NCBI GenBank assembly: GCA_964641945.1
Contig: CAZXLQ010000001.1
Location: forward strand, 13,725-77,724
Direction of reading: 5' to 3'
DNA: 64,000 nucleotides
DNA from: an uncultured Clostridia bacterium
GTDB lineage: Bacteria; Acidobacteriota; Blastocatellia; UBA7656; JADIYM01
Shown here piece by piece: positions 13,005 through 47,898 of this stretch; within the stretch, counting starts at the first letter, position 1, and every line of letters starts with the position of its first letter. The notes beneath the pieces were generated by a model. It did no database searches. It saw only the letters and a list, made by a program, of their open reading frames with translations, and had not been told where the DNA came from. The position numbers and the translations under genes are program-made.

Positions 13005-13405
13005 CCTTGGAAGTCAACACATTGGAGCCGATGCTCGGTCGCGTGTTGCGGTCCGTCAGGGTGGCTCCAGACAAAACCGAACTCGTCTTCGAGGCTGACA
13101 ACAACGTCAGATTTCGCTTCTATCACGCGCAGGAGTGTTGTGAAGAGGTTGCTATCGAAGATGTGGTCGGAGACCTCGAAGATCTCATCGACGCCCCGGT
13201 GCTTGTCGCTGAAGAAACAGTCGGCTGGTCTACACCCGGAGAAGAGGTGATGCGGCGTCTCGGTGCCGAACCGCTCGACGACTCGTGGACGTGGACCTTC
13301 TATCGGTTCGCCACGGTAAAGGGAACGGTCACTGTGAGGTGGTACGGCTCCTCGAACGGCTATTACTCGGAAAGGGTCAGCTTCGCCGTGGAGTCTTCGT
13401 CATGA
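13001..13405 (+). CDS. hypothetical protein
   Basis: 134-aa ORF, ATGA overlaps both sides. Confidence 0.55.
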   Translation: MTLEVNTLEPMLGRVLRSVRVAPDKTELVFEADNNVRFRFYHAQECCEEVAIEDVVGDLEDLIDAPVLVAEETVGWSTPGEEVMRRLGAEPLDDSWTWTFYRFATVKGTVTVRWYGSSNGYYSERVSFAVESSS

Positions 13406-13641
13406 AAAGTCGATCTGTGAAAAGTCGATCTGTGTATCGCATACCGGCCGGACTGACCTTCTACCAGCCGTCAGACCAGGATCGACTGTTTCGGATCGGC
13501 CCGTGCGAGGCGTGTGGCGTCGAGACCAAATCGGCCATAGGCATGTCCCCAACGTGCGGTCGTCAGACGTGCGCCGATCACATCGAAGCAATTCGTCGTA
13601 TTCGCCGCCAGACATTGGATGCGTTCCGGCGAACACCATAA
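13402..13641 (+). CDS. zinc-ribbon protein with in-frame KSRSV duplication
   Basis: CEACGVE..CGRQTCADH; 15-nt tandem duplication at 13403-13432. Confidence 0.5.
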   Translation: MKSRSVKSRSVYRIPAGLTFYQPSDQDRLFRIGPCEACGVETKSAIGMSPTCGRQTCADHIEAIRRIRRQTLDAFRRTP

Positions 13642-15555: not shown

Positions 15556-16491
15556 ATGTCTGAAATCCCCCATCCCATCCCGTATCAGGGGAGCAAGCGA
15601 CGGCTCGCCCCGATCATTCTTGAGTACCTGCCCGATGACGTCGACACGTTGTTCGAGCCCTTCTGCGGCTCGGCGGCGGTCAGCCTGGCGGTCGCGCGTG
15701 CCTCGAAAGCGAAGCGTATCGAACTCAACGATAGCCTCGACTCTCTGGCGAAGCTCTGGATGAACATTGTGGACCAGCCCACCTCCGTCGCCGACGACTA
15801 CGAGAGGATTTGGCATGGTCAGAAGGAGGACCCGCGTGCGTACTACGATGTTGTGCGCGACGAGTTCAATCGCGACCGAGACCCCTCGAAGCTGCTCTTC
15901 CTGCTTGCGCGTTGCGTGAAGAATGCTGTGCGATTCAACAGCTCAGGAGACTTCAATCAATCGCCCGACAAGCGTAGGACTGGCACAAGGCCCGAGCGGA
16001 TGCGGCAGAACATCATCGGTGCGGCCACACTCCTCAAGGGCCGCTCGAAAGTCACGTCTGGTGACTACGCAGCGGCGTTCAGCGCGGCAACCGCGAGGGA
16101 TGTCATCTACATGGATCCGCCGTATCAGGGGACCAGTGGAGAGCGCGACCAGCGCTACCATCAGCAACTCGACCGAGCCCGCTTTGTCGATGACCTCGAC
16201 CGGCTTCTGGTGCGAGGCGTCAGGGTGATCATCAGCTTCGATGGCCGTTGCGGGGACCGCACCTACGGGCCGGAGCTTCCGGCGAGTCTCGGATTGACGA
16301 AGCTGGAAATCCACGCGGGCCGCTCCTCTCAGGCGACGCTCAATGGCGAGGAGGCGGACACGGTCGAGTCGCTCTACGTCTCGCCGCAGCTACTGCGGGG
16401 CACCGGAGTGGCTCACCGAACAAGATCGGTGAAGGAAACCCCCCAGCAAGTAGCAACCAGGCGCGAACTCGGGCCGCAGCGCGATACATGA
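15556..16491 (+). CDS. Dam-like (D12 class) N6-adenine DNA methyltransferase
   Basis: IPYQGSKRRLAPII, FEPFCGSAAV (motif I), YMDPPY (motif IV); ATG with GAGGGA RBS. Confidence 0.85.
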   Translation: MSEIPHPIPYQGSKRRLAPIILEYLPDDVDTLFEPFCGSAAVSLAVARASKAKRIELNDSLDSLAKLWMNIVDQPTSVADDYERIWHGQKEDPRAYYDVVRDEFNRDRDPSKLLFLLARCVKNAVRFNSSGDFNQSPDKRRTGTRPERMRQNIIGAATLLKGRSKVTSGDYAAAFSAATARDVIYMDPPYQGTSGERDQRYHQQLDRARFVDDLDRLLVRGVRVIISFDGRCGDRTYGPELPASLGLTKLEIHAGRSSQATLNGEEADTVESLYVSPQLLRGTGVAHRTRSVKETPQQVATRRELGPQRDT

Positions 16492-17611: not shown

Positions 17612-17639
17612 TTGACACGGTTTGAGACGGTGCTAGATT
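17612..17639 (+). promoter_or_regulatory. sigma70-like promoter TTGACA-N16-TAGATT, leaderless start at 17646
   Basis: sits in an unusually AT-rich 160-nt island (17486-17645) with GATACGA x2 direct repeat. Confidence 0.5.
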
Positions 17640-18188: not shown

Positions 18189-18635
18189 ATGTACCAAACC
18201 AAGAAAACGCGAGCCCTGTCCAACGACCTTGCCCTTGCTACCGGACGCACTGCTGCCTTGCTGCGAGAGGCAACCGGGCTCTCTCAGGCTGCTGTCGCCA
18301 AACGCCTCGGCATCGCTCGTCGCAACTACGCTCGCTTCGAGGCTGGGGAGCATGAACCGATGCTGTCGACGATTGTTCGCCTCGCCCACGCCCACCAGTT
18401 CTCTCCAGCGTATGTCGTCTCGCTGGTGCTTGGGGCGGCACAGCCTCCATTGCAGATCGGCGCCGAGTGCGTGGTCGACAACGAGTACGAGGACGAAGTC
18501 GTCATTGTTCACCCGTGTGTCGCCGTGGATGGCAGCGAGGCCTACGCATGCCGCGACAAGTCCGGAAGGACTCAGGCGATTCGACGTTCCAACTTGCATC
18601 CGCGCTCCAGCTTTCCAACGAAGAAGAGGCCATGA
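18189..18635 (+). CDS. XRE-family helix-turn-helix transcriptional regulator
   Basis: LSQAAVAKRLGIARRNYARFEAGEHEPMLSTIVRLA. Confidence 0.7.
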   Translation: MYQTKKTRALSNDLALATGRTAALLREATGLSQAAVAKRLGIARRNYARFEAGEHEPMLSTIVRLAHAHQFSPAYVVSLVLGAAQPPLQIGAECVVDNEYEDEVVIVHPCVAVDGSEAYACRDKSGRTQAIRRSNLHPRSSFPTKKRP

Positions 18636-19024
18636 ACACCAAGGACCTTCCCGACGACACCTTGCTCCCGGGCCATCAATACACGCTCGGTGAGCAGCGA
18701 GAGACCATTCGCAAGATGCGAGCGATCAACAGCGACTTCTACGCGATGGTCTTTTCGGCCAGCATGGGCTCGCGCTGCCACGCGTTCGTGGAGTTCTGCG
18801 GCCTCCAGGCCAAGTTCATCGACATGTGCGAGGCCGCGCTCAACCAGGGCATCGAGTTCGCCTTCGCCAATCAGCACGGATCTGTTTCCTGGCCGCTCGA
18901 CACACACCACGCCGCATACCTCGGCGAGAAGTTCCAGTGCATCTACGGTTTCGCACTCGGGCCCAACCCAGAGCTGCGACAGACGTTTCTCGAAGCTGGG
19001 ATCGGGAAGGAGACGGGCAAATGA
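18632..19024 (+). CDS. hypothetical protein
   Basis: ATGA overlap; internal Met with AAGAAGAGG RBS. Confidence 0.5.
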   Translation: MNTKDLPDDTLLPGHQYTLGEQRETIRKMRAINSDFYAMVFSASMGSRCHAFVEFCGLQAKFIDMCEAALNQGIEFAFANQHGSVSWPLDTHHAAYLGEKFQCIYGFALGPNPELRQTFLEAGIGKETGK

Positions 19025-19392
19025 ACTTCGGACAAGCGCTCGAAGTGCTCAAGGCAGGCAGGCGCGTCGCTCGCGACGGGTGGAACGGCAAGGGTATGTG
19101 GCTGGTGCTCGTGAAGCCACGCGTCTCGTACGGGGCGGCGGAGGAGGAGGAGGTGACGTACCTGGTCGGCTTGCCGGCCGGAGTTGCGAGAATGCCAAAC
19201 TGGCGGGACGCGCGTTTCGCGGAGTGGGACGCGCGTTTCGCGGAGTGGCTATCCGGTGACGCGGAAGTGCAGCAGTCGGCGCGCCTGCTCCCGTGGATCG
19301 GGATGAAGACGGCGGACGGTGGCTTCGTGCCGTGGCTCGCGTCACAGACGGATCTGCTCGCTGAGGACTGGGCCGAGGTGCCAACCTCATGA
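19021..19392 (+). CDS. DUF2829-like protein (family that includes Thoeris anti-defence Tad2)
   Basis: MNFGQALEVLKAGRRVARDGWNGKGMW .. LLAEDWAEV; RBS GGAAGGAGA; contains 21-nt in-frame tandem duplication DARFAEW x2. Confidence 0.55.
   Translation: MNFGQALEVLKAGRRVARDGWNGKGMWLVLVKPRVSYGAAEEEEVTYLVGLPAGVARMPNWRDARFAEWDARFAEWLSGDAEVQQSARLLPWIGMKTADGGFVPWLASQTDLLAEDWAEVPTS
19208..19249 (+). repeat. 21-nt perfect tandem duplication inside DUF2829 gene
   Basis: ACGCGCGTTTCGCGGAGTGGG x2. Confidence 0.8.
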
Positions 19393-19423: not shown

Positions 19424-19732
19424 TTGACCGACGAAACGCGGATCGACGGTCGTTGTCAACGGTGCGAGGGCGCCTGCTTCTCGTTCGCGGTCGAAGGCGT
19501 CGGCTTGTGGCGGCGGTGGCTCGGCGCCTACATAGGCGGCGCTCCGCCCAAGCGCGACCGCATGACGTGCCTTGTGTGCCTCACGCCCGAGGAGCTGGCC
19601 CGCGTCGAGCGCATGAACCCAAAGCAGGCAATCGCGCCGCTTCTGAGCCGCATCGAAGCGGCCCGGGGCGGAGAAACGACACATGACGAGACAGGACGAC
19701 GAAACGAAGCAGACGACGATGGAACCGGGTGA
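19424..19732 (+). CDS. hypothetical Cys-containing protein (TTG start)
   Basis: GGAGG 6 nt upstream of TTG; CQRCEGAC..CLVC. Confidence 0.35.
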   Translation: MTDETRIDGRCQRCEGACFSFAVEGVGLWRRWLGAYIGGAPPKRDRMTCLVCLTPEELARVERMNPKQAIAPLLSRIEAARGGETTHDETGRRNEADDDGTG

Positions 19733-19910
19733 GCTGTCGCTGACGCATCTGCGGAAGGCCATCAGCTCCGCACGCAAACTCGTCGACCACTACCGTCGGC
19801 AGAACCCGGATCCCCGTGAAGGGCGCCAGCTCGCCATCGTCGCCACGCATCTCGAAGACGCCGAGCTGCACATCGTTGCGGCGACGGTTGGCGGCGTGGA
19901 GAAGCTGTGA
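19683..19910 (+). CDS. hypothetical protein
   Basis: 75-aa ORF; start uncertain. Confidence 0.35.
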   Translation: MTRQDDETKQTTMEPGELSLTHLRKAISSARKLVDHYRRQNPDPREGRQLAIVATHLEDAELHIVAATVGGVEKL

Positions 19911-23460: not shown

Positions 23461-23790
23461 ATGGCAGCGAAGCAGAAGAGCATCGAAGGCACCGAGAAGC
23501 CCGCAGAGACGGAGGAGGAGAAAAAGCCGAAGCCGAAGCGCGTCGTTAGGCGCAAGCCGCTCTGGCTCTGCCTTCCGGTCGCCTACGACCATGGCATCGA
23601 CGAAAACGGCAACGAGTTCTCCGTACCGAGGCAGTTCGAGATCCACCAGTGCCACAGCAAGGCCGACGTCCAGACGCTGCTCGAACTGCGTCAGCTCGAC
23701 AGCACGAACCTCAACTACGACCACGTGAAGATCTTCCGCGCCGACCCGTTGCCGCTGAAGCTCACGACCCAGGTTCTGATCAAGTTCTGA
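23461..23790 (+). CDS. hypothetical protein
   Basis: GGAGA RBS; Lys/Glu-rich N-terminus. Confidence 0.5.
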   Translation: MAAKQKSIEGTEKPAETEEEKKPKPKRVVRRKPLWLCLPVAYDHGIDENGNEFSVPRQFEIHQCHSKADVQTLLELRQLDSTNLNYDHVKIFRADPLPLKLTTQVLIKF

Positions 23791-23806
23791 GAGGAGGTAC
23801 AGCACA

Positions 23807-24682
23807 ATGGGAACGCAGCTTCTCCCCGGCGAGCGGGGAACGTACTTCAAGATGGACCCCGACGCTCTGGTGATCGTCGGTCTCGACACGCCTCACAAGT
23901 CCGGCGAGCACCCGCTCTGGGACGAACGCATTCTGCTGCCGCTCGATGAGTCCATGGTCAAGAACATCATGGCGCTCGGAGTTCAGGAGAGCGTGCGCGT
24001 CGAAGTCGAGAAGGGAACTGACGGGTCGAAGGTTCCCTACGTCGTCGACGGCCGCCGCCGCGTCATGCACGCACGCGAAGCCAACAAGCGGCTGAAGACC
24101 CTCGGAGAACCACCGGTCACTGTTCCGGTCATCGCGGAGAAGAACACCAACGCCGAGGACCTGTCCATGCTGACGATCTCGCTCAACGAGATCCGCAAGG
24201 ACGACCCGATGATGGTGAAAGCCGCCAAGGCTGGCCGCATGCAGGCGCGCGGGATGAGCACCAAGCAGATCGCCCTCGCCTTCGGCGTTGCCGCCGGCAC
24301 CGCTGATCTGTTCCTGCGTCTGAACGGAGCCCACGACGAACTGAAGAAGGCGGTCGCCGCAGACAAGATCACTGCCACGGCAGCCGGCAAGCTCTCCGAG
24401 CTGCCTCGCGACGAGCAGCCCGCTGCCCTCAAGAAGCTCCTCGACGAAGCCAAGGCCAGGGGCGAGAAGCGCGGCAAGGTGAAGGATGCGGCTGCCATCG
24501 CGACCTCGCGAAAGAAGGGCGGCGAAGCCCGTCCAGCGCCCGGGAAGCGCATCCTGCTGCGTGTGGTCTCCAACGGAACGAGCGTGCTGCACGACGAGTT
24601 CATCCGCGGGGTCCGGTTCGCCATGGGGGATCTCGATCCTCGCGCCGTCTCCGGACTCTCCGCTCTGATGACGAAGAAGTGA
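23807..24682 (+). CDS. ParB-like nuclease-domain / HTH protein
   Basis: ParB N-domain-like block PYVVDGRRRVMHAREAN and HTH MSTKQIALAFGVAAGTADLFLRL. Confidence 0.75.
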   Translation: MGTQLLPGERGTYFKMDPDALVIVGLDTPHKSGEHPLWDERILLPLDESMVKNIMALGVQESVRVEVEKGTDGSKVPYVVDGRRRVMHAREANKRLKTLGEPPVTVPVIAEKNTNAEDLSMLTISLNEIRKDDPMMVKAAKAGRMQARGMSTKQIALAFGVAAGTADLFLRLNGAHDELKKAVAADKITATAAGKLSELPRDEQPAALKKLLDEAKARGEKRGKVKDAAAIATSRKKGGEARPAPGKRILLRVVSNGTSVLHDEFIRGVRFAMGDLDPRAVSGLSALMTKK

Positions 24683-24891
24683 GAGCTGATATCGAACAGC
24701 TCGCCCTCAAGCTGGCCGACGAATGGCATCGCATGAGCACCTCCGATCGGCAGCTTCTCGTCCGTGCTAACCCACGAGTCGAGAAGCTGCTGTTCGACCT
24801 GCATACGCTCACACTTGGAGACCCGCGCCGATGCTACTGCTGTTCGGCACCGCACCACGACCCTCGCTGCCCAGCCTATCGGCGCACATGA
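24679..24891 (+). CDS. hypothetical protein
   Basis: GTGA overlap; 70 aa. Confidence 0.4.
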   Translation: MRADIEQLALKLADEWHRMSTSDRQLLVRANPRVEKLLFDLHTLTLGDPRRCYCCSAPHHDPRCPAYRRT

Positions 24892-24898
24892 AAGAGGC

Positions 24899-26929
24899 AT
24901 GGCCAAGAAAGCCAAACCGCGAAGCGATCTGAACCCTGAGCAGGAGGCCGTTGCTTCTCACGTGGACGGCCCGCTTCGAGTCGTCGCGACAGCCGGATCT
25001 GGCAAGACCACGGCGCTGATCGAGCGTGCGGTTCGGCTCGTTCAGTCGGGCGTCGACATGCAGAAGATCCTGCTCATCTCCTTCTCGGTGAACGCCAGAA
25101 AGCAGATGGCCCAGCGAATCTCTGCTCGTCTACCCGGCACCGAAGCTGGCGAGATGTGCCGAACGTTTCACTCGATCGCGCTCGACATCTTCCGGCGCGA
25201 GGTCGACCCGCAGAAATCGTGGGCCCTCGACACGAGCGGCAGTCTCACCCGAATGGTCATTCGCTCAGCTCTGAACGACCACGGACTCAGTCCGACTCAT
25301 GAACTGAGCCAGGCCGTCTTCGACTTCGCGTCGCGTGCCAAGAACGACCTGCTCGTCGAACCGCCAGCGCTGCGTCGCCTCGGCCTCCGCAATCCCGGAC
25401 TGCTGAGACTCGCTTCCACCTTCGCCAACGACACGCTGGTGGGCTGCTCGGGGGACGATCTCGTCACAGTGCTCCTGGCCATGGAAGACAATCGCCGTCG
25501 CGGGCTTCGGCTCGACGGCGCCGTCCGCCGCTTCGCGAACTTCGATGACCTGCTCGTGCATGCGGCCCATCTTTTGATTCAAAACGACGTGCGAGAGCGA
25601 TGGGGCTTGAGGTGGTCGCATGTGATGCAAGACGAGGCTCAAGACGAGAACACTGCTCAGGCAGAAATCGCCCATGCGCTCTGCCGCACGAGCCGCAACT
25701 ACGTGATCGTCGGAGACCCAGCTCAGAGCATCTTCGGCTTCCGTGGCTCTCGTCCTCAGCGCATCCTCAAGTTCGACGAAGAGTGGCCAGGCGCGGCTAC
25801 GGTCAAGATGTTCCGGAACTATCGGTCTGGCATCGAGATCGTCGAAGCCTCCAACCGTCTCATCAGCTTGATGCCCCCAGACACGGTCCTTCCGATGGAG
25901 GCAAAAAGCGAGCGACAGACGCATGCCTTCCTCGCCGCAGCGGAGTTTCGGACACAGAACGACGAGGCGAAAGCCATCGCGGCAAACATCAAGGCCCACC
26001 GGCGCGACGGGGTGGACTGGAAGGACCAGGCGATCTTGGTCCGCACCAACGCACAGACAGGACCCATAGAGGCAGCTCTTGCCGAGGCGGAGATCCCCTA
26101 CAACCTCATCTCCGGCGAGAGCTTCTTCGAGCTGCGAGAGACCGGATTCTTCTTTGGCTCGATGAGGATGATCGAGAAGCGGGCCAAGCGTGACGACGTG
26201 CGAATGGCGATGTCTGTCGTCGCCAACAAGGCCTTCGCGGACGGCGTCGCCGCTCGGTACGAAGAAGACCCGGAGCACGACTGGTTCCGCGCCGTACAGG
26301 GCGAACTGGAATCGCCGAACGCCAATCTCGCAGCAGGAACTCGGCGACGACTCCAGCAATGGATCGGGACGCTCCTTCGACCAACGTCGAACGGTGGAAC
26401 GGTTGTGTCCCCCTACAAGATCGTCAAGCTGCTCCAGTGGGCGGTGCTCCCGGACGAGAAAGCGACGGCTTCCGACACAAAGAAACTCGAAGCCGCTGGC
26501 GACAACCTCAAGTCCGAGAACGTCAAGGCCGTCTGCTCCTTCGTAAGTGACTACGCGAGCTGCGCCGCCGTGTGCGACAAGCTCGACTTGATCGACAAGG
26601 CTCGCTCGTCGCGCACCCCCAACAAGGTCGCCATCTCGACCGTTCACAAAGCGAAGGGAGCCGAGTGGCCGATTGTCTACATCGCCGGATGTGAGAACGG
26701 TCTGTTTCCTGTGGGCAGTGCAGACCTCGTGGAAGAACGGCGCCTCTTCTACGTTGCTGTCACACGGGCGATGGACGAGCTGTGGGTCTCCTACTCGACC
26801 GAAGACGACGAGCGAGACAAAGAACCGAGCTGCTTCATCGAGGAGGCCAAGATCCCAATCACCAACTGGCCCGAAACAGGACGCCGCATCACGCCCGCAA
26901 GAGTTGGCGACCAGCTCTCGCTGATCTGA
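24899..26929 (+). CDS. UvrD/Rep-like superfamily-1 DNA helicase
   Basis: Walker A ATAGSGKT; C-terminal VHKAKGAEWPIVYIAG..LFYVAVTRA. Confidence 0.85.
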   Translation: MAKKAKPRSDLNPEQEAVASHVDGPLRVVATAGSGKTTALIERAVRLVQSGVDMQKILLISFSVNARKQMAQRISARLPGTEAGEMCRTFHSIALDIFRREVDPQKSWALDTSGSLTRMVIRSALNDHGLSPTHELSQAVFDFASRAKNDLLVEPPALRRLGLRNPGLLRLASTFANDTLVGCSGDDLVTVLLAMEDNRRRGLRLDGAVRRFANFDDLLVHAAHLLIQNDVRERWGLRWSHVMQDEAQDENTAQAEIAHALCRTSRNYVIVGDPAQSIFGFRGSRPQRILKFDEEWPGAATVKMFRNYRSGIEIVEASNRLISLMPPDTVLPMEAKSERQTHAFLAAAEFRTQNDEAKAIAANIKAHRRDGVDWKDQAILVRTNAQTGPIEAALAEAEIPYNLISGESFFELRETGFFFGSMRMIEKRAKRDDVRMAMSVVANKAFADGVAARYEEDPEHDWFRAVQGELESPNANLAAGTRRRLQQWIGTLLRPTSNGGTVVSPYKIVKLLQWAVLPDEKATASDTKKLEAAGDNLKSENVKAVCSFVSDYASCAAVCDKLDLIDKARSSRTPNKVAISTVHKAKGAEWPIVYIAGCENGLFPVGSADLVEERRLFYVAVTRAMDELWVSYSTEDDERDKEPSCFIEEAKIPITNWPETGRRITPARVGDQLSLI

Positions 26930-26936
26930 GAACACC

Positions 26937-27338
26937 ATGGACACCAAGAAGTGGCAAAAGAACTGCGACACCTGTGGACAATCAGTCCCGCTGGATCCGA
27001 TCGAGCCTTGCAACCTGTGCGGCCATCCATGCGGTGTGCCGGCAGGCGAAAACGATCCCGGAGACCAGCGGATGGGGCTTATCAAGCAGACGGTAGTCGG
27101 TGGCTATTGGTCGACGCCTGGGAACGGAGACGGAGCGCTCGACGATGGCATTTCGTACCGCTTCTCCCTCTGCGAGTTCTGCCTGGACTGGCTCTTCCAA
27201 CGCTTCGTGATCCCGGTTTCTACAGTCCCGTCCCCATTCCGACCCGCAGAGCAGCGCGTGCGAGATGACGAGTGGCGACGGCACAAGACTGAGTTTTTCG
27301 CCGAGTTCGAGAAGCGGAACGCATCCAGGAAGCTCTGA
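26937..27338 (+). CDS. Cys-rich hypothetical protein
   Basis: CDTCGQ..CNLCGHPC. Confidence 0.5.
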   Translation: MDTKKWQKNCDTCGQSVPLDPIEPCNLCGHPCGVPAGENDPGDQRMGLIKQTVVGGYWSTPGNGDGALDDGISYRFSLCEFCLDWLFQRFVIPVSTVPSPFRPAEQRVRDDEWRRHKTEFFAEFEKRNASRKL

Positions 27339-28012
27339 TGCCCAAACTCGTCTTCGTCTCCGATACACACGAGCAGCACCACGTACTCAACATCCCTCCG
27401 TGTGACATCCTCATCCACTGCGGAGACGCGACAGGCGTTGGGCGCGTCGATCGTCTGGAAGCGTTCAACGCATGGGCTCGACGGCTCAAGAAGATCGGAA
27501 TGACCAAAGAAGTCGTCTTCGTGGCAGGAAACCACGACGTGCTTCTCGACGCGTCGCATCCCGCGGTCAATCGCGACGATCGGACGCGTCGGCTTCATCG
27601 CATGGCCGTTGAGGCTCTAGATTCGGTGATCTACCTGAAAGACTCCGAGGCTACCATCGACGGTCTACGGTTCTGGGCCAGTCCGTGGACGCCACGGTTC
27701 TTGGACTGGGGCTTTCAGCTTGATGGCGAAGCGCATGCGATGGAAGTGTTCTCCCAGATACCACACGGGATCGACGTGCTGGTAACACACGGTCCCCCAG
27801 CCGGCATTCTCGATCTGTGCCCAGACGGCCGACGAGTTGGATCAAGCGCTCTACTCGAAGTCGTGCGCGATCGTCGCCCGAAGATACATGCGTTCGGCCA
27901 CATCCACCACAGCTACGGAGTCGAAGAAATCGACGGCATCAAGTTCGTGAACGCCTCCATCTGCACCGAGCAGTACCTTCCGCTCAACAAGCCGATCGTC
28001 ATCGAAGCGTAA
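27338..28012 (+). CDS. calcineurin-like metallophosphoesterase
   Basis: VSDTHEQHH, HCGD, GNHD, THGPP, GHIH metal-binding motifs. Confidence 0.8.
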   Translation: MPKLVFVSDTHEQHHVLNIPPCDILIHCGDATGVGRVDRLEAFNAWARRLKKIGMTKEVVFVAGNHDVLLDASHPAVNRDDRTRRLHRMAVEALDSVIYLKDSEATIDGLRFWASPWTPRFLDWGFQLDGEAHAMEVFSQIPHGIDVLVTHGPPAGILDLCPDGRRVGSSALLEVVRDRRPKIHAFGHIHHSYGVEEIDGIKFVNASICTEQYLPLNKPIVIEA

Positions 28013-28557
28013 TGCGTCGGCAGGCGTCCACGATATCTCTCGAAGAGGAGCTTCAGCTTGAAGCTCGCATTCTCTCTGCGCGGAGGCTTGGTGCGAAACC
28101 GGGCACCGTCAGGCGCCTCTGCCCGCTCTGTCACGACGTCTACTTCGTAGCCAGCGGTCATCGCGGCAGCGTCTACTGCAAGATGGTAGCGACTCGAAAG
28201 GCGTTGCTTGAGCGGCAACTCGCCGCCGTGTCTATGAACTACAAAAAATGGATGGACGAGCTGGGTGTCCCGTACGAGCTGCATGAGACCAGCTACAGCC
28301 GAGTCGAGAGGGGTGCCTTCAAAGGCATCGGCGAGCTGGAGACGCGGATGTGGGTTCCGATGACGGTTGCCAAAGCCGTCAGGCTGGTCGAGGAAACCGG
28401 ACGAACCGAGTTCGGTCCTACTTATTCGCTGTGCAGTATCGAGACTCGGCGAGCGCTCATCGCTGATCTGGTACTGAAGAACAAGGCTCAGTGGCTTCGA
28501 GAAGGAATCGGAACGCAAGGTCTTCTCACCGCATCAACTGACACTTCCCCAGCCTAG
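28012..28557 (+). CDS. hypothetical protein
   Basis: TAATG overlap; 181 aa. Confidence 0.5.
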   Translation: MRRQASTISLEEELQLEARILSARRLGAKPGTVRRLCPLCHDVYFVASGHRGSVYCKMVATRKALLERQLAAVSMNYKKWMDELGVPYELHETSYSRVERGAFKGIGELETRMWVPMTVAKAVRLVEETGRTEFGPTYSLCSIETRRALIADLVLKNKAQWLREGIGTQGLLTASTDTSPA

Positions 28558-28786
28558 CCATTGCTATCCGTCCTTCTCGGTCTCGACGCATGGACATCCT
28601 TCGATGGCGTTGCCTGTTAGGATCGACTCTTCGACGAAGATCACAGTCCAAGCACATCTCCGCCTTCCGAGGCTCACCACCGATGAAAGACCACTCGGGA
28701 GTGGTTTCGCCGCAGCAAACGCACACGGGGTTCCCCAGTCGCCTCAACGCCTGGAACCTCAACGAGGGCTTGGGACGCTTACGCAT
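28526..28786 (-). CDS. doubtful small Cys-containing ORF
   Basis: low complexity; convergent overlap with 28012-28557. Confidence 0.25.
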   Translation of the reverse strand: MRKRPKPSLRFQALRRLGNPVCVCCGETTPEWSFIGGEPRKAEMCLDCDLRRRVDPNRQRHRRMSMRRDREGRIAMARLGKCQLMR

Positions 28787-29549
28787 GAGCGGCAGAACCT
28801 GAAGCAACGCGCTTGAGGTACTCGTTCACCTGCTCGATCGTCAGCGGTGGGACGTGAACTTGGGTGTCAGTGTGCATGAAGCCCCAGCCAACGTCCGCGA
28901 CAACCAGGGTCCCGTCCGGACGACGCATGAGGTTGCCCGAGTGAACGTCTTCCCAGTCGATTCCCATCGAGTGCATCGCGTGGACCGCGTCGCTGATCTG
29001 ACGCAGCAGTTCGACACCGCGCTCCAGGTTGGGCGCCGTATTCATTCCGCTTTCCACGAGATCGTCCCTCAGGTAGCTCCGCCACTTGTCGAGCATTGCT
29101 CGATGCGATGGCCGCGGAAACTTCAGGTCGATGTCCATGTCGTTGTAGATGTCGAAGAGAATGTCGACCAGCGTCGAGTCTTTCTTCGAGAGCGGCGTCA
29201 TGTAGGACCGGTGAATCAGATACCAGCCGCGAAGACCTGGCTGATGCGAGCCCGTCACGACCCAGATGTTGTGGATGTCGACGATGTTCTTGTGCCTCTT
29301 GCCACGAAGCACGGCGGAGGCCTGAGCCTCGGACGGATCCCGAGTGAACTTCAGAACGGACTTGCCCCCGAGGTCCACTTCGTAGGCAGCGCCGAACGCT
29401 CCTTTGCCGAGCTTCTGCTTCACGGGGTCGGTGATTCCGAGTCGCTCGACGCAATCTCGATGCTTCAACATCACAAGCCCCAACGGCATGTGAGGCTCGC
29501 GGGTGATCTTCGAGAACGTGGAAGGGTAGCTGTAGGACTGGTCGATCAT
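28779..29549 (-). CDS. protein kinase-like (Ser/Thr kinase fold)
   Basis: Gly-rich loop LGKGAFGAAYEV, Lys in VLKF, catalytic HSGNLMRR, DVGWG. Confidence 0.7.
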   Translation of the reverse strand: MIDQSYSYPSTFSKITREPHMPLGLVMLKHRDCVERLGITDPVKQKLGKGAFGAAYEVDLGGKSVLKFTRDPSEAQASAVLRGKRHKNIVDIHNIWVVTGSHQPGLRGWYLIHRSYMTPLSKKDSTLVDILFDIYNDMDIDLKFPRPSHRAMLDKWRSYLRDDLVESGMNTAPNLERGVELLRQISDAVHAMHSMGIDWEDVHSGNLMRRPDGTLVVADVGWGFMHTDTQVHVPPLTIEQVNEYLKRVASGSAAHA

Positions 29550-29552
29550 GTC

Positions 29553-29579
29553 TGTCAGACACGCATCTTATGTCGGACA
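29553..29579. promoter_or_regulatory. paired operator-like sites TGTCAGACA and TGTCGGACA, 18 bp centre-to-centre
   Basis: divergent region between kinase gene and basic-protein gene. Confidence 0.45.
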
Positions 29580-29646
29580 GCCGTCTCCGCCAACACCCGG
29601 TGGGCTCTGGCTGCGGAATCAGTTAGGATAGGCCCCGGAGAACCAG

Positions 29647-29907
29647 ATGGCCTACCACATCCCGAAGCCACGTCGTCGCAAGAAGTCTCGCAAGACCAGC
29701 CGCCGCACCAGCAAGCACGGCTACATCGTCGTCGCTGGTCGAGGCCGAGGCCGCAAGTGCCTCAAGACGACCTTTCGATCCAAGGCGAAGGCTGCCGCGG
29801 CTGCTCGTCGCACCTCGAAGCGCACGGGGCGGTCGTGCCGGGTGCGACAGGTCGCGGTGGCAGCTCGCCGTCGTCGGACCAGTCGTCATCGCCGGACCAG
29901 CCGTTGA
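29647..29907 (+). CDS. highly basic small protein (Arg/Lys-rich)
   Basis: GGAGA RBS; GC3-rich codons; could be histone-like DNA-binding or a frame artefact. Confidence 0.4.
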   Translation: MAYHIPKPRRRKKSRKTSRRTSKHGYIVVAGRGRGRKCLKTTFRSKAKAAAAARRTSKRTGRSCRVRQVAVAARRRRTSRHRRTSR

Positions 29908-29915
29908 GGTAGCCA

Positions 29916-30866
29916 GTGAGCTACCGAGGACTTGGTCAGGCGAAGATCGTCCCTGGGCAGATCAACTTCGCAACCCTCCCGCCTGGCCAGACGGCGTTGC
30001 CCAGCCTCGAACCGTTGGTACGAGCGGGCCTGCCCATCGCGCCGTACATCGAACACGGAAGCTGGGAGACAGGAGAGCCGGCCATCATGCGCTACGGACT
30101 GGACCCATACCGGGGCATCATGGGGCTCGGCCAAGGCGGCGGTGCCGCCGAGGCACAGTCCATGAAGTTCGAGGTCGTGGTACCCGGCGAGCCCCGCGGT
30201 TCCTTTCTCTTCGAGGAGCTTCTGGAGGCCGTAGACGCTGCTGCCATGCTCCACGGGCAGAAGGGGCGGCAATCGCGAGTCGTGAGCCCACCGGGCTCTG
30301 AGAACATCGTGGCTGATGTCGACACGGCCGGCCGGGTCCGGATGCTTCACGGGCTGGGTCAGAGCATCGGACAGTCCATCCGACGCCTGGAGAACCAGTC
30401 CTACCGTGTCATTCCAGACACATGGGCTCGGACTGCTGCCGGAGCTGGTCGCTACGTCAGGGGGATGGACGCGGCCATGAAGACAGCCAAACGGCTCCTT
30501 CGTGAGAACCCCAGGACGACCATCAGGGTCTTCGCCGAGGGGACCGGGCTCATGATGCCCGGATCCGAGGTCGTGGCCATCCAGCGCCAGCCCGGTGGCG
30601 GCATCGACGTGCGATTCAACTACCATCTCTCTGGAGGGCTGGGACAGGCACTGACCGACCTGGTGTGCTCAGAGACCGCGGTGGCCGGCTCCTGGCGAGC
30701 CAGAGTGGTCGGAGGTCTCAATGCTGGCGCCCAGGCCGCCCTTCTGGGGGCTGCCGCAGCCGGCTTCATTGGGGCTCTGATTGGCAAGCCGGTCATCGCT
30801 GCCGCAGCCGGCGCAGCCATCGGATGGAGCGGGTACTCGATCTGGACGGCAACCTACCGCGTCTGA
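29916..30866 (+). CDS. hypothetical protein with C-terminal glycine-zipper membrane segment
   Basis: GAAAAGFIGALIGKPVIAAAAGAAIGW. Confidence 0.55.
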   Translation: MSYRGLGQAKIVPGQINFATLPPGQTALPSLEPLVRAGLPIAPYIEHGSWETGEPAIMRYGLDPYRGIMGLGQGGGAAEAQSMKFEVVVPGEPRGSFLFEELLEAVDAAAMLHGQKGRQSRVVSPPGSENIVADVDTAGRVRMLHGLGQSIGQSIRRLENQSYRVIPDTWARTAAGAGRYVRGMDAAMKTAKRLLRENPRTTIRVFAEGTGLMMPGSEVVAIQRQPGGGIDVRFNYHLSGGLGQALTDLVCSETAVAGSWRARVVGGLNAGAQAALLGAAAAGFIGALIGKPVIAAAAGAAIGWSGYSIWTATYRV

Positions 30867-42080: not shown

Positions 42081-42548
42081 TCGCAAGGGCTGCCCAGCGC
42101 CCTGAAGCTGATGACAGGTTGGGCCCCGACACGCCTCGCCCGCCGGGGGATATCGCAATGGCTGCCCAGCGCCCTAAAGCTGGTGACCGGGTGATGATAC
42201 GGCGACGCGTGCGACCTCCCTCGGGTCGCAAGGGCTGCCCAGCGCCCTGAAGCTGGTGACGGCCGCACGCTTGCTCACCGACTGCTCGGCCACGAGTCGC
42301 AAAGGCTGCCCAGCGCCCTGAAGCTGGTGACCTCGCGCCGCAGGGTGGACGCGCGCCCGAGGCGGACATCGCAAGGGCTGCCCAGCGCCCTGAAGCTGGT
42401 GACGTGTACGTGTGCGCGAGATCGGTGTCGCGCAGCACGTCGCAAGGGCTGCCCAGCGCCCTGAAGCTGGTGACGGAGCGACCTTTTCCCCCCACGAGAT
42501 CCTCGACCGTGCATCGCAAGGGCTGCCCAGCGCCCTGAAGCTGGTGAC
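42081..42548. CRISPR. CRISPR-like array: 7 repeats of about 35-36 nt, 6 unique spacers of 36-39 nt
   Basis: repeat (G/A)TCGCAAGGGCTGCCCAGCGCCCTGAAGCTGGTGAC starting at 42081, 42153, 42226, 42297, 42369, 42440 and 42514; repeats 1 and 2 carry point variants; internal hairpin GGGCTG/CAGCGCCC; no cas genes in window. Confidence 0.8.
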
Positions 42549-42656
42549 GTGTTGGCATGGCGACCAAAGACAACGGCCTCGACGGCTTTCGCCACCGAGG
42601 CCGCTGCCTCCACAACATGAAGGAGGTCACGTCAACCGCAGGACAAGACCGTACCA

Positions 42657-43416: not shown

Positions 43417-43441
43417 GGTTCTTTCGACGGAGTCAACCAAG

Positions 43442-43512
43442 TTCGGGGAGAGGGACTCGAACCCCCGTGAACTGGACCAAGGCCAGTCGTCCTGCCGCTA
43501 GACGATCCCCGA
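43442..43512 (-). tRNA. tRNA (anticodon loop CCTTGGT; TTG, Gln-type, C33)
   Basis: acceptor 7/7, T-loop TTCGAGT. Confidence 0.6.
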
Positions 43513-43513
43513 G

Positions 43514-43584
43514 CGCAGCGTGCGGGAGTCGAACCCGCCTGGCGTCGGTGAAAGCGACGCGGCCTCCCGGAAGCCCAACGCTGC
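43514..43584 (-). tRNA. tRNA-Glu(TTC)
   Basis: acceptor 7/7 (43515-21 vs 43578-84), T-loop TTCGACT, loop CTTTCAC. Confidence 0.75.
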
Positions 43585-43597
43585 ATCATCCAGATAG

Positions 43598-43670
43598 AGC
43601 CCCGAGCCGGTCTCGAACCGGCGGCCCCCTGCTTACAAGGCAGGTGCTCTGCCAACTGAGCTATCGGGGC
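43598..43670 (-). tRNA. tRNA-Thr(TGT)
   Basis: acceptor 7/7, loop CTTGTAA. Confidence 0.75.
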
Positions 43671-43851
43671 GGTTTCGTTCTTCACGCCATCGGTCAAGAA
43701 TCGCAGCCGTCTCACGCGTCGCAACGAAAAGCCGCACGGAGAGGCACGACTCGCACTGCCTGTCGCCAGAGTACGACGGCAGGACCCCTTCGTGCCCAGT
43801 GCGACCACACTTCTCGCAGATCGAGTAGAACTCGTGCCAGTAGTCGATCAT
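43633..43851 (-). CDS. doubtful small Zn-binding ORF whose 3' end overlaps tRNA-Thr
   Basis: CEKCGRTGH..CESC; overlap with tRNA 43598-43670. Confidence 0.25.
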   Translation of the reverse strand: MIDYWHEFYSICEKCGRTGHEGVLPSYSGDRQCESCLSVRLFVATRETAAILDRWREERNRPDSSVGRAPAL

Positions 43852-43867
43852 TCGACGAACTGTATCA

Positions 43868-43940
43868 TGCCGGTTGCGGGAGTCGAACCCGCCTGCTCCG
43901 CTTTACGAGTGCGGTGCTCTCCCACGAGAGCGTAACCGGC
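43868..43940 (-). tRNA. tRNA-Thr(CGT)
   Basis: acceptor 7/7, loop CTCGTAA. Confidence 0.7.
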
Positions 43941-43977
43941 GTATACTGCATGCGATGAGGCCCACCGCGACAGAACG

Positions 43978-44166
43978 ATGCGAATGATCTCAACGGCGAG
44001 AACGAGTCTGCTCGACGCTCAGTACGCGCTCGGAGCGATCTCCCGCTACTCACCCGAGGCCGCCGCGCTCCACAAGATCATCGTCGAGACCCGGAAGACC
44101 GTCGAGCGAATGCGTGTCGTCGACGCGCAAACCATCTCGCCCAACAAGAGGCGGAAGCGGCGCTGA
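43978..44166 (+). CDS. doubtful small ORF between tRNAs
   Basis: 62 aa. Confidence 0.3.
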   Translation: MRMISTARTSLLDAQYALGAISRYSPEAAALHKIIVETRKTVERMRVVDAQTISPNKRRKRR

Positions 44167-44239
44167 CGTCCCGTACGCGAATCGAACGCGTGTTTCCAGG
44201 TTGAGGGCCTGGCGACTTGAGCCGCTGGTCGAACGGGAC
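44166..44239 (-). tRNA. tRNA (anticodon loop CCCTCAA; CTC, Glu-type, C33)
   Basis: acceptor 7/7, T-loop TTCGATT. Confidence 0.55.
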
Positions 44240-44560
44240 ATCACGGAGACCGGAAGGCTCGAACTCCAACGCCTTGCGACGTCGCACCGGGTAGCGGCCG
44301 GGCCCAGCACCACCTGCTGGTTCAGTCTCCAAGCGGAAGAAGGAGGTCACGATCCCCAACGCCTTGCGACGCCGCTCCGCTTTCGAGGCGGACCCGGTCC
44401 CCGACCGGTTCTTCTTCCAAGCGGAGAGCGGAGGTCCTGACCCTCAGCGCCTTGCGACGCCGCAACCGCTTCCAACGGTACCCGAGCCCCGCTCGGTTCG
44501 CTCTCCATGGAGAAGTGGGGGCACGATCCCCAGCGCCGAAACGCCCATCGGTGTTCAAAG
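44240..44560. repeat. three or four degenerate ~90-nt tandem units with palindromic core CTTGCGACG(Y)CGC and tRNA-fragment-like GGTCACGATCCCC
   Basis: cores at about 44266, 44356, 44444; partial copy at about 44520. Confidence 0.6.
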
Positions 44561-44942
44561 CCGTGTCGAGCCCAGCTCGATTCCTTCTCCAGTCGGTGAT
44601 CCGTTCGAGTCCGGCGTCTACACACCTGAGTTACCAGCCCAGGACGCCTCAGCAGAAGTCGATTGTTCGGTCACGATCCTCCGCCGCCTGGCCGGGCGAC
44701 TTCAACGGACCGGAGGGACTCTACCCCCAAGGCGCAAAGCACTGGTTCATGATTTTCGCGCCAACCGCATTGACCAAGGGCCAGGAACCTCGCCGACCGG
44801 CGCCCAAGGTCTCACGTACCGTATCTTCCTCTGCTGTACGACACACCCGATTCCCCGAAGCGCTGCCTTGCCCGCCGTGCCAGCGTGCGTCTTCAGCCAT
44901 GGGTAGAAACCGGACTCGAACGGATCACTTACATTCTCACCT

Positions 44943-45455
44943 TCACGCAGCCTTGCCGAAGTAGGGCCGCCATGCCTCAGGGACAGCCCTGAGATCGAAC
45001 TTCTTGGGAACCACCGGAAGCCAGACAGGCTTCTTCGGCTGCCTGAGCAGCTTCATCTTCGCCTCCTCCGGCGTCCGGTTGCCCTTCTTCGAGTTGCACG
45101 GATAGCAAGCCGCGACGATGTTGTCCCATTCCGTACGACCACCTCGCGAGCGAGGGATGACGTGGTCGTAGTTCAGCTCGTGCGCCTCGAAGTCACCGCC
45201 GCAGTATTGACACTGGTGCCCGTCGCGGAGCAGCACGTTCGCGCGAGAGAACTTGATCGACACCTTCTTTCCGCGAGCCTTCCGCACCATACGGATGATC
45301 GACGGCATGTGCATCGCGACCGACGGGGAGCGGATCACCTCCGACGTCGCCTCCACGACCTCTGCCTTTTCGTCGTAGAGCAGGCAGATCGCCCGCTCCC
45401 AGGAGACGATCCGACTTGGTTGGTAGAACGAATCGAGGACGAGTACGCGCTGCAT
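44943..45455 (-). CDS. HNH endonuclease
   Basis: DGHQCQYCGG..YDHVIPRSRGG..WDNIVAACYPCNSKKGN. Confidence 0.75.
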   Translation of the reverse strand: MQRVLVLDSFYQPSRIVSWERAICLLYDEKAEVVEATSEVIRSPSVAMHMPSIIRMVRKARGKKVSIKFSRANVLLRDGHQCQYCGGDFEAHELNYDHVIPRSRGGRTEWDNIVAACYPCNSKKGNRTPEEAKMKLLRQPKKPVWLPVVPKKFDLRAVPEAWRPYFGKAA

Positions 45456-45472
45456 GATCTGGCTCCGTGATC

Positions 45473-45545
45473 TGCGGACCGTCGGAGTCGAACCGACACT
45501 GAGCGGTGTTTGAAGCCGCTGCCTCTGCCGTTGGGCTACGTCCGC
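45473..45545 (-). tRNA. tRNA (anticodon loop TTCAAAC; CAA on a short-variable-arm scaffold, identity unclear)
   Basis: T-loop TTCGACT, acceptor 6/7. Confidence 0.5.
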
Positions 45546-45559
45546 GTTGAGGTTGGTCG

Positions 45560-45587
45560 ATAGTAAGGTTCGTGTCTGACAAGTCAA
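45560..45587 (-). promoter_or_regulatory. promoter TTGACT-N16-TACTAT with TGTCAGACA in spacer, upstream of tRNA 45473-45545
   Basis: minus-sense cttcTTGACTtgtcagacacgaacctTACTATcgacc. Confidence 0.5.
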
Positions 45588-45594
45588 GAAGCGA

Positions 45595-45668
45595 TGCGCG
45601 AGGACGGATTTGAACCGACACTTGCTAGGTTCTTAGCCTAGTGCCTCTGCCAGTTGGGCTACCCGCGC
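45595..45668 (-). tRNA. tRNA (anticodon loop CTAAGAA; identity unclear)
   Basis: T-loop TTCAAAT, acceptor pairs with one G-U. Confidence 0.5.
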
Positions 45669-45670
45669 GT

Positions 45671-45744
45671 TGCCGACGAGTGGATTTGAACCACCACTGG
45701 GTACGGTCTGAACGTACTGCCTCTGCCAGTTGGGCTACATCGGC
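45671..45744 (-). tRNA. tRNA (anticodon loop TTCAGAC; CAG on a short-variable-arm scaffold)
   Basis: T-loop TTCAAAT, acceptor pairs with one G-U. Confidence 0.5.
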
Positions 45745-45750
45745 GTGGAG

Positions 45751-45824
45751 ATGCACGACCAGAGATCGAACTCTGCTGGGGCGACGTGTGAGATCGCTGC
45801 CGTCTCCAGACGGCTCGTCGTGCA
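45751..45824 (-). tRNA. tRNA-Val(CAC)
   Basis: acceptor 7/7; imperfect T-stem; loop CTCACAC. Confidence 0.6.
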
Positions 45825-45924
45825 GGTTCAGATCGTCATCCGTGTCGCGCACACCTCGGCCGTGGCCACGGCCGCCGGACTCCTAGCCGGGACTGATGAC
45901 GATCCGGTTCGGTCCGCGGACCGA

Positions 45925-45996
45925 TCGGGCTGGCCGGACTCGAACCGGCAACTACTCCGCCCCGAACGGAGTGGGGTACCTTTCCCCTACAGCCCG
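45925..45996 (-). tRNA. tRNA-Pro(CGG)
   Basis: acceptor 7/7, T-loop TTCGAGT, loop TTCGGGG. Confidence 0.75.
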
Positions 45997-46077
45997 GAAG
46001 TCTGGGTGGCCGGTTCCGCCCCGGCGGCCTCGTGCTCCCCGAGCACGCGCTCTGCTTGCTGAGCTACACCCAGATGA

Positions 46078-46148
46078 TCGCAGCGGCGAGAATCGAACTC
46101 GCTCTGCCCGCGTATGAAACGGGTCCTCGGCCATCGAGGATCGCTGCG
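46078..46148 (-). tRNA. tRNA-Met(CAT) (Met/fMet/Ile2 not distinguished)
   Basis: acceptor 7/7, loop TTCATAC. Confidence 0.7.
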
Positions 46149-46231
46149 TTGGTTTGCGGCCCCCGGAGTCGCGCCGGGTTGGCAAGGGGTATGAGCCCAA
46201 GCTGGTATCTCCACCTGCGCCGCACAAGACA

Positions 46232-46303
46232 CGCTGTCGGGTTGACTCGAACAACCATCTCCGACTTCGGACGTCGGGATCCTATCCTTTGGACTACGAC
46301 AGC
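46232..46303 (-). tRNA. tRNA-Arg(CCG)
   Basis: acceptor 7/7, loop GTCCGAA. Confidence 0.75.
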
Positions 46304-46779
46304 TTTTTCCACGAAAGCGGGACAAGTAGCCCGTGGTCCATCTCCCAGTGGCAGTTGCGACACAGGATCGCCACGTTGTCCTCCGCGTTGACCTCTGAGA
46401 GCGAAGCGCTCTCGCTGAACCCCGAGATTGGCTTGATATGGCAGAACTCGACATGCTTCGAGTACCCACAGTTCTCACACACTCTTGCACGGTGAGCGTT
46501 TGATTCGCGGCAGTGAGTCCGTACCAGCGAGTGTCGCCACGGCCCATCCTTGGAACGCTGAAGTTCTCCCAACGTGCGCTCACGCGACTTGTCCACAGAG
46601 ATGCACGCGATGCACTTCTGCCTCCTGGACCGCTCTACCTGCACTCCGCAAGCGCTACATGCCGGACGCGGGTTTCGCTTTCTCTTGACGGTCTCCCTGT
46701 TTGTCATGCGCGCGGAGCAGGTGCGAGAGCAAAACCTTGGGTTCTCCGTCTCCTGGCCGCACGTGGCACACTTGACCAT
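46294..46779 (-). CDS. HNH endonuclease
   Basis: C-terminal CHIKPISGF..NVAILCRNCHWEMDHG; N-terminal Cys clusters; start at MVKCATCG. Confidence 0.75.
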   Translation of the reverse strand: MVKCATCGQETENPRFCSRTCSARMTNRETVKRKRNPRPACSACGVQVERSRRQKCIACISVDKSRERTLGELQRSKDGPWRHSLVRTHCRESNAHRARVCENCGYSKHVEFCHIKPISGFSESASLSEVNAEDNVAILCRNCHWEMDHGLLVPLSWKKLS

Positions 46780-46789
46780 GACGCGTGGC

Positions 46790-46817
46790 AATCTAGCCAC
46801 CCACTGTCTGACAGTCA
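46790..46817 (-). promoter_or_regulatory. promoter TTGACT-N16-TAGATT with TGTCAGACAG in spacer, 10 nt before HNH ATG 46779
   Basis: minus-sense gcgTTGACTgtcagacagtggtggcTAGATTgccacgcgtcATG. Confidence 0.55.
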
Positions 46818-46892
46818 ACGCCCACGGAGGGACTTGAACCCCCACGAGACCCAGGTTCGTAGCCTGGCGCTCTATCCATTGAGCTACGCGGG
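46818..46892 (-). tRNA. tRNA-Arg(ACG)
   Basis: loop CTACGAA, acceptor pairs with one G-U. Confidence 0.7.
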
Positions 46893-46899
46893 CAGAAGA

Positions 46900-46974
46900 C
46901 CGCGACCGGAGGGAGTCGAACCCACATCGATCCATTACGGTTCACTCGTTTAGAAAACGAGACCGGTACGGTCG
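46900..46974 (-). tRNA. tRNA (anticodon undetermined)
   Basis: canonical T-arm, acceptor 7/7 (46901-07 vs 46968-74); internal arms ambiguous. Confidence 0.5.
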
Positions 46975-47481
46975 CCCAGATGTAGCCAGGCCATGGGCCT
47001 TCGCCCACTTTCTGACAGCGTTATCCGACACGCCGAACATCTCACCGAGCGCGACCCACGAGTGCGTCTCCAACAACTTCTCAAGCTCCTCCTTCTCTGG
47101 TCGCTTCGCGATTCGCGAAGCCATAGCGGAGCATTCGTACGAGCAAAAACGCGCGTTGAACGTCTGGCGTCCGCATCGCTCGCACGTGGACGATTCGCGA
47201 GGCCCGTAGCGCTCCATATTGTGCGCGGCCACATGCTGCCTGTGATCCATGACCTCCAAGTTCTCTGGACGGTTGTCGTCCTTCAGCTCGTTCTTGTGAT
47301 GGACGCTTTCGGATGGCAGTACCCAGCGGCCGATCGTGATCGATGCGACGTGACGATGGACGTAAACCTTCCCCTGACTGTTTGCGAGCGGGTGAGATTT
47401 ATCCAGAAAGTACATGTACCCGAGCGTCTTGTCCTTCTTCGGCGGCTTTGCGCAAGGATCCCAACTGTACTCTTGGTCCAT
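46942..47481 (-). CDS. HNH endonuclease (HNH_3-like) with C-terminal HTH
   Basis: HHKNELKDDNRPENLEVMDHRQH; 3' end overlaps tRNA 46900-46974. Confidence 0.75.
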   Translation of the reverse strand: MDQEYSWDPCAKPPKKDKTLGYMYFLDKSHPLANSQGKVYVHRHVASITIGRWVLPSESVHHKNELKDDNRPENLEVMDHRQHVAAHNMERYGPRESSTCERCGRQTFNARFCSYECSAMASRIAKRPEKEELEKLLETHSWVALGEMFGVSDNAVRKWAKAHGLATSGRPYRSRFLNE

Positions 47482-47515
47482 GTTTTTGGCCTAGAATGTT
47501 GAGGTTCGAATGTCA

Positions 47516-47583: not shown

Positions 47584-47588
47584 AGAAA

Positions 47589-47895: not shown

Positions 47896-47898
47896 AGA

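Follow-up and report, generated by a model that had tools for sequence, protein, structure and literature searches.

A Tad2-family protein from an undescribed tRNA-rich phage carries a perfect in-frame heptad duplication in its insertion domain

Tad2 sponges are a well-characterized and very widespread family of phage counter-defence proteins, with a published count of 2,783 Tad2/DUF2829 homologs in IMG/VR. The founding member, SPO1 Tad2 [Gp34.65; Protein Data Bank (PDB) ID codes 8SME, 8SMF, 8SMG, and 8WJE], is the Thoeris anti-defence 2 sponge for gcADPR. It contacts 1′′-3′ gcADPR through W25, N26, I63, T65, D67, H71, W73, S76, T78, and D79, and the helix of its variable loop packs to form the dimer (Yirmiya et al.); it bound no cyclic oligonucleotides (Li et al.). 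HgmTad2 (the same protein as AcrIIA7; PDB ID codes 8KBI to 8KBM) and SptTad2 (PDB ID code 8WJD) are two-pocket sponges that bind gcADPR plus cGG/cGAMP, and in both an insertion builds the second pocket, which accommodates the cyclic dinucleotides. The gcADPR contacts of HgmTad2 are W21, N22, G23, M76, A78, T82, V84, W87, L88, S90, T92, and D93, and its mutants W21A/N22A and S90A/T92A/D93A lose binding (Li et al.). Mutation of R31, S47, F70, or N85 of HgmTad2 abolishes dinucleotide binding (Li et al.). ModTad2/MoTad2 (PDB ID codes 8V3E and 9EIB), of the same family and fold, is a sponge for His-ADPR and cUMP/cCMP, and cUMP is bound by MoTad2 at an interface equivalent to the insertion pocket. 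The ligands of Tad2 homologs thus vary widely (CBASS dinucleotides, cUMP/cCMP, His-ADPR, and N7-cADPR), so that specificity can't be read from family membership alone, and recent published work has ascribed the ligand range largely to the variable insertion domain.

Here, we describe a divergent member of this family encoded in a 64,000-nt stretch of DNA (hereafter, the window), a high-GC (∼0.61) phage genome. The gene and its parts are as follows.

19007–19012, plus strand: Shine-Dalgarno sequence AAGGAG, 8 nt before the ATG of the Tad2-like gene, read directly from the sequence.
19021–19392, plus strand: Tad2-like (DUF2829, PF11195) gene, 123 aa plus stop, identified by its ORF, its translation, and Pfam, PHROG, and PDB sequence matches.
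19021–19116, plus strand: N-terminal conserved core, residues 1–32, comprising helix α1, strands β1 and β2, and the GWNG loop (W21, N22, G23); pLDDT 92–98.
19117–19284, plus strand: variable insertion domain, residues 33–88, between β2 and the C-terminal sheet, with an EEEE run and the duplicated helix; pLDDT 47–64.
19205–19248, plus strand: perfect tandem repeat with a period of 21 and 2.1 copies (44 nt; TRF score 88, 100% matches, no indels).
19285–19380, plus strand: C-terminal conserved core, residues 89–120, with β strands and a helix, carrying M95, T97, D99, V103, W105, L106, S108, T110, and D111; pLDDT 94–97.

Direct reading of the sequence showed the ORF to be intact over 123 codons, from the ATG at 19021 to the TGA at 19390–19392. 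The start codon lies within an ATGA (19021–19024) and so overlaps the TGA of the upstream gene (18632–19024), which suggests translational coupling of the two genes, a typical phage arrangement.

The initial annotation of this DNA had assigned the protein to the DUF2829 family by its N- and C-terminal motifs, both of which are present as written, and the assignment held at each level of comparison. In a search with the Pfam HMM, PF11195 (Tad2-like, formerly DUF2829) matched with E = 1.4e-25 and a score of 90 bits (gathering score, 25). The alignment covered all of profile positions 1–73 with residues 1–120 of the protein, ∼47 of which are inserted with respect to the core of the family. PHROG 1048 and PHROG 872 matched the protein as well. 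A sequence search of the PDB returned all solved Tad2 proteins (1e-15 to 9e-13) and essentially nothing else, with HgmTad2, deposited as AcrIIA7, ranked best (1.1e-15), followed by SptTad2, ModTad2, and SPO1 Tad2. The family is large: a protein search recovered 6,117 homologs at E ≤ 0.001, and homologs are present in 219 cultured-phage records. The window protein is a divergent member, sharing no more than 62% identity with any other protein and no more than 44% with a homolog from a cultured phage.

We then compared the predicted fold with known structures. An AlphaFold2 model built from a 120-sequence alignment reached a pLDDT of 92–98 over residues 1–30 and 91–120 and exceeded 90 throughout the core; an earlier, shallower model from 17 sequences had a pLDDT of 58. 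The predicted secondary structure (helix 3–11, strands 15–18 and 27–31, the insertion, strands 92–96 and 102–104, helix 109–113, and strand 117–120) has the topology of the Tad2 fold, namely an N-terminal helix, an antiparallel β-sheet, a short C-terminal helix, and a variable insertion after β2. Foldseek against the PDB gave 24 significant matches, every one of them a Tad2 chain, with TM-scores of up to 0.86 normalized on the target; no structure other than Tad2 appeared below E = 1 in this search with the 120-sequence model, and the 17-sequence model returned the same Tad2-only list. The structural comparison that the initial annotation had proposed thus matched the model to Tad2 crystal structures exclusively, and the 123-aa protein is confirmed as a Tad2/DUF2829 family member by Pfam, by PDB sequence matches, and by predicted fold. 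The two cores are strongly conserved, with mean identities to 16 close homologs of 79% (N-terminal) and 86.5% (C-terminal).

Set against the individual structures, the protein resembles each in different ways. With SPO1 Tad2 it shares the Pfam family, the predicted core fold (TM-score up to 0.84 on the target), and the character of a small phage-encoded protein, but the two are only ∼31–33% identical, the insertion of SPO1 Tad2 measures ∼24 aa (residues 36–59) against ∼56 aa in the window protein, and SPO1 Tad2 is without the tandem duplication. HgmTad2 and SptTad2 offer the best PDB sequence match, a long insertion between β2 and the C-terminal sheet, and an alignable F..W helix segment, although the insertion of the window protein is longer than theirs and otherwise unrelated in sequence. 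ModTad2 gives the best superposition of the core (TM-score 0.86, rmsd 2.2 Å on 8v3e_F) but measures just 88 aa, its insertion being short as well.

The gcADPR pocket could be followed residue by residue. In the HMMER alignment, the 10 SPO1 Tad2 contacts correspond, in the same order, to W21, N22, M95, T97, D99, V103, W105, S108, T110, and D111 of the window protein; eight are identical, and the remaining two, M95 and V103, are conservative replacements that agree with HgmTad2. Compared with HgmTad2 itself, the window protein is identical at the positions aligned with W21, N22, G23, M76, V84, W87, L88, S90, T92, and D93, which include both sets of residues whose mutation abolished binding, and the sole mismatch among the HgmTad2 contacts is the water-mediated T82, replaced by G101. 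Among the 120 nearest homologs, each pocket position is either invariant or conserved in at least 90%. By every in silico test, the predicted gcADPR pocket is intact, with all of its mutation-tested residues in SPO1 Tad2 and HgmTad2 kept. Moreover, the window protein and SPO1 Tad2 both carry the motif W-L-A-S-Q-T-D, whereas ModTad2 has W-T-P-S-V-S-D, which appears to place the window protein nearer to the gcADPR binders than to the His-ADPR binder.

The insertion domain, by contrast with the cores, has a mean identity of 15% to the 16 close homologs. Among 117 homologs with both motifs, the spacing from GWNG to WLASQTD has a median of 48 aa and extremes of 35 and 101 aa; in the window protein it is 81 aa, or 74 aa if the duplication is taken out. 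Judged from these sequences, length change in the insertion is the norm for the Tad2 family. In the AlphaFold2 model, residues 64–78 form a single continuous helix that spans both copies of the duplicated heptad at a pLDDT of ∼60, and on a helical wheel F66, W69, F73, W76, and L77 fall inside an arc of 60–160 degrees. We tentatively describe this region as one continuous amphipathic helix running across the duplication, a description that carries the low confidence of the model here. Because seven residues make about two helical turns, duplication of a heptad would extend the aromatic stripe in phase.

At the DNA level, GACGCGCGTTTCGCGGAGTGG occurs in codon register exactly twice, at 19207–19227 and 19228–19248, and an exact pattern search found it nowhere else in the window. 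The unit encodes DARFAEW, at residues 63–69 and again at residues 70–76, with identical codons. A repeat of this kind is expected by chance about 3e-9 times per window for a lag of 21 and fewer than 1e-6 times for any lag up to 200, and none of 100 shuffles reproduced it. Among the 122 sequences compared, this protein is the only one with a perfect tandem peptide repeat of at least five residues. The initial annotation had reported a perfect in-frame 21-nt duplication, and this stands (DARFAEW twice), yet the 21-mer that it quoted, ACGCGCGTTTCGCGGAGTGGG, is set in a register in which position 19249, the last base of the second copy, is C where the first copy has G, so that the perfect tract comprises two units and 2 further nt rather than two exact copies of that word. 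The duplication sits outside the conserved core, and neither outcome that the initial annotation named as refuting it (absence of a DUF2829 hit, or disruption of the conserved fold) was seen.

Other short repeats were noted in the window. A (GAG)4 run at 19139–19150, slippage-prone and of low complexity, encodes EEEE (residues 41–44) in the same insertion domain. A 15-nt unit is present in 3.9 copies (97%) at 59106–59164, inside a 487-aa minus-strand ORF (58952–60415), and a perfect 15-nt unit in 2.1 copies lies at 13403–13434, at the start of a small gene (13402–13641). Slippage-type duplications with unit lengths that are multiples of three thus seem to be recurrent in this genome.

To place the duplicated allele in its population, we collected other copies of the locus. 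The exact 123-aa protein is on record in NCBI and in Logan assemblies, and at five of five loci, from five metagenome runs in two SRA series, the DNA of the gene is identical and carries two copies of the unit. The flanks of these loci differ from the window by 0–9 SNPs. At one of them (L004), positions 1557–2810, which align near ∼17551/17519 of the window, hold an additional glycosyltransferase gene of the GT4 family, which lies upstream of the operon; upstream segments of this locus are 93–96% identical to the window, and the phages are otherwise more than 99.7% identical. The five loci represent at least four haplotypes, with mosaic variation between near-identical phages. The duplicated allele is, then, both real and tolerated and is fixed among the phages sampled, and it is neither a private nor a just-arisen mutation.

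We found no single-copy allele among ∼15 billion proteins, and the 90%-identity cluster of the protein has one member only. Neither IMG/VR nor the JGI metagenomes contained an exact 24-nt pattern that spans the downstream border of the repeat, and no protein on the reference genome contigs exceeded 50% identity to the Tad2-like protein. The nearest relatives, P0002 (110 aa, 62% identity) and P0003 (109 aa, 61% identity), are encoded on phage-like uncultured contigs. Their cores are 78–97% identical to those of the window protein, and they have the same insertion architecture, ending in W-L-S-G-[DE], but each has a single heptad-equivalent (RDVAFGNW-LSGE and GEVAVGDW-LSGD); in a DNA alignment with the single-copy relatives, a 24-nt gap falls opposite the first copy. 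A single copy is plausibly the ancestral state in the lineage of the window phage, given that both relatives are single-copy and that the P0003 phage shares other genes with the window. The initial annotation had suggested looking among close relatives for one or two copies of the unit; neither a close single-copy relative nor a single-copy population variant turned up, the single-copy homologs being at most 62% identical.

It had further called the duplication a fresh slippage event. The two copies are indeed undiverged, but "fresh" needs qualification, as the allele is common to at least four haplotypes and five runs and has no single-copy counterpart. With a population divergence of at most 0.3%, zero differences in 42 nt would be expected whether or not the duplication is young. 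As to its origin, replication slippage or microhomology is most likely, with GG at both unit borders. Single-strand folding of the repeat DNA fell short of significance (z = −1.55), with only a trivial CGCG-TTT-CGCG stem; a hairpin-driven origin is unsupported at this value.

The surroundings of the gene are those of a phage that has gone undescribed. A megablast search with 9 kb around the Tad2-like gene found zero matches in INPHARED (50,697 phage records). Features of the window that bear on its identity and on the expression and neighbourhood of the Tad2-like gene are as follows.

17612–17639, plus strand: sigma-70-like promoter, TTGACA-16-TAGATT with TG, a consensus match only (10/12), preceding the same-strand small genes among which the Tad2-like gene lies.
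19683–19910, plus strand: 75-aa ORF two genes downstream of the Tad2-like gene, with a subthreshold match to PF24729 (Acb2/Tad1 hairpin; 19.1 bits against a cutoff of 27).
43441–50041, minus strand: 27 tRNA genes in one array of ∼6.6 kb, covering most amino acids.

The tRNA array, together with two helicases, a tyrosine integrase, and an endolysin that the window also encodes, marks it as a large, undescribed high-GC phage. Although tRNA genes are so numerous, the tyrosine integrase (57826–58947, plus strand) suggests that the phage is temperate. A 71-nt unit is repeated ∼4.5 times (71% matches) at 42225–42549, immediately upstream of the array, and could represent iterons or an origin, or degenerate repeats. 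The contig that encodes P0003 (L009) has a UvrD-type helicase, a ParB-like gene, and other genes in common with positions 23500–30100 of the window, at 34–49% amino acid identity, and its UvrD-type helicase contains an intein. By this shared gene content, the P0003 phage is distantly related to the window phage and has its Tad2 gene in a syntenic position.

The Tad2-like gene itself lies in a same-strand run of small early-type genes, downstream of an XRE-type HTH gene and of a Dam-type (MethyltransfD12) DNA methyltransferase. The methyltransferase (15556–16491, plus strand), a few genes upstream, may have an anti-restriction role. The promoter listed above was the one site found in a consensus scan in which 0.4 would be expected. 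As for the 75-aa ORF, its family is tiny, and for each of the eight members PF24729 is the most frequent weak match, always below threshold (the best at 26.1 bits, cutoff 27); a profile search of PDB sequences with this family gave no match. It is a possible candidate for a second sponge beside Tad2, and as such it hints at a small anti-defence cluster.

We consider it probable that the protein is a Tad2-family sponge that blunts Thoeris-type immunity and that the duplication lengthens the insertion-domain helix by one heptad that is tolerated. By homology to Tad2, the protein would assemble as a homotetramer, a dimer of dimers whose pockets lie where protomers meet, and the tetramer would sequester TIR-derived ADP-ribose signals (1′′-3′/1′′-2′ gcADPR and possibly related ones) in a pocket made up of the GWNG loop (W21, N22, G23) and the C-terminal M-K-T-A-D...W-L-A-S-Q-T-D segment. 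With the signal sequestered, a Thoeris-type effector would stay inactive. Slippage or microhomology would have added one heptad to the amphipathic helix of the insertion domain, making the helix ∼1 nm longer while keeping its aromatic stripe (F66, W69, F73, W76, L77) in phase and the core undisturbed. Our default reading is that the functional effect of the duplication is neutral or mildly modulatory.

The duplication could instead be adaptive, in that a longer helix creates or retunes a second site (for a cyclic dinucleotide, cUMP/cCMP, or another ligand) and so widens the range of defence systems inhibited, a proposal that we regard as unlikely. The precedent lies in HgmTad2, SptTad2, and MoTad2, where the insertion domain supplies both the second ligand pocket and some of the dimer interface; nearly all of the HgmTad2 cyclic-dinucleotide pocket is formed by the insertion (residues 32–72), and MoTad2 binds cUMP at the same interface. 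As in the two-pocket subclass, the insertion of the window protein is long, and it is longer still than that of HgmTad2 (41 aa), with 81 aa between the motifs against the median of 48; in the HMMER alignment, moreover, F73..W76 in the second copy of the repeat aligns with F53..W56 of HgmTad2, and all sampled haplotypes are fixed for the allele. However, the tested dinucleotide contacts of HgmTad2 are not recognizably kept: R31 is replaced by K32, the N85 position is deleted ("ggfv.pw" vs. "GTIVnGW"), and S47 and F70 fall in insertion sequence that can't be aligned. The window protein is, for this reason, not placed in the HgmTad2/SptTad2 two-pocket subclass. Fixation in a nearly clonal population (divergence at most 0.3%) does not show selection, and the insertion is poorly modelled (pLDDT 47–64).

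A bolder form of this proposal, which we rate as a long shot, is that the long insertion and its heptad produce a second pocket or an altered dimer interface unseen in solved Tad2 structures, with a specificity beyond gcADPR, and that, with its 75-aa neighbour weakly resembling the Acb2/Tad1 hairpin, the protein belongs to a small anti-signalling cluster in a new phage lineage. If this were true, the duplication would be a sponge insertion domain caught in the act of growing.

Relaxed constraint on a decaying or nonfunctional gene copy, of which the duplication would be a sign, is very unlikely. The insertion is partly of low complexity (EEEE and the duplicated heptad) and poorly conserved, as such a process might leave it, but the ORF is intact with a strong Shine-Dalgarno sequence and translational coupling, the pocket residues are all conserved, the cores are 79–87% identical to those of homologs, and the protein sequence is identical across haplotypes. 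Still less credible is an anti-CRISPR role (AcrIIA7-like) in place of signal binding. The best PDB match was deposited as "Inhibitor of Type II CRISPR-Cas system"/AcrIIA7, and homologs are so annotated in some phage records; AcrIIA7, however, is HgmTad2, for which Cas9 inhibition was not reproduced in vitro or in vivo and which proved to be a gcADPR/cGG sponge (Li et al.), and Yirmiya et al. agree with Li et al. for DUF2829 proteins. It is next to incredible that the duplication came from an error of assembly or sequencing, or that it is a mutation private to a single genome: perfect identity of the copies would be equally expected from an artefact, but the gene DNA is identical in the NCBI record and in five runs, each assembled separately, of two SRA series, the haplotypes are distinct by their flanking SNPs and the glycosyltransferase-gene insertion, and the 44-nt tract, in which no word of 24 nt or longer is repeated, should pose no ambiguity to de Bruijn assemblers at the usual k.

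The duplication is small and lies in the most plastic region of a family that is already known, and it leaves the pocket untouched. The main value of the gene is in a correct annotation and in a small case of indel-driven evolution in an arms-race protein, and it opens no new question. To the Tad2 family it adds a member that is fairly divergent and comes from a tRNA-rich phage lineage not described before. It also supplies a natural one-heptad length variant of the insertion-domain helix, in which one copy against two would probe how far this domain tolerates, or can be tuned by, changes in length.
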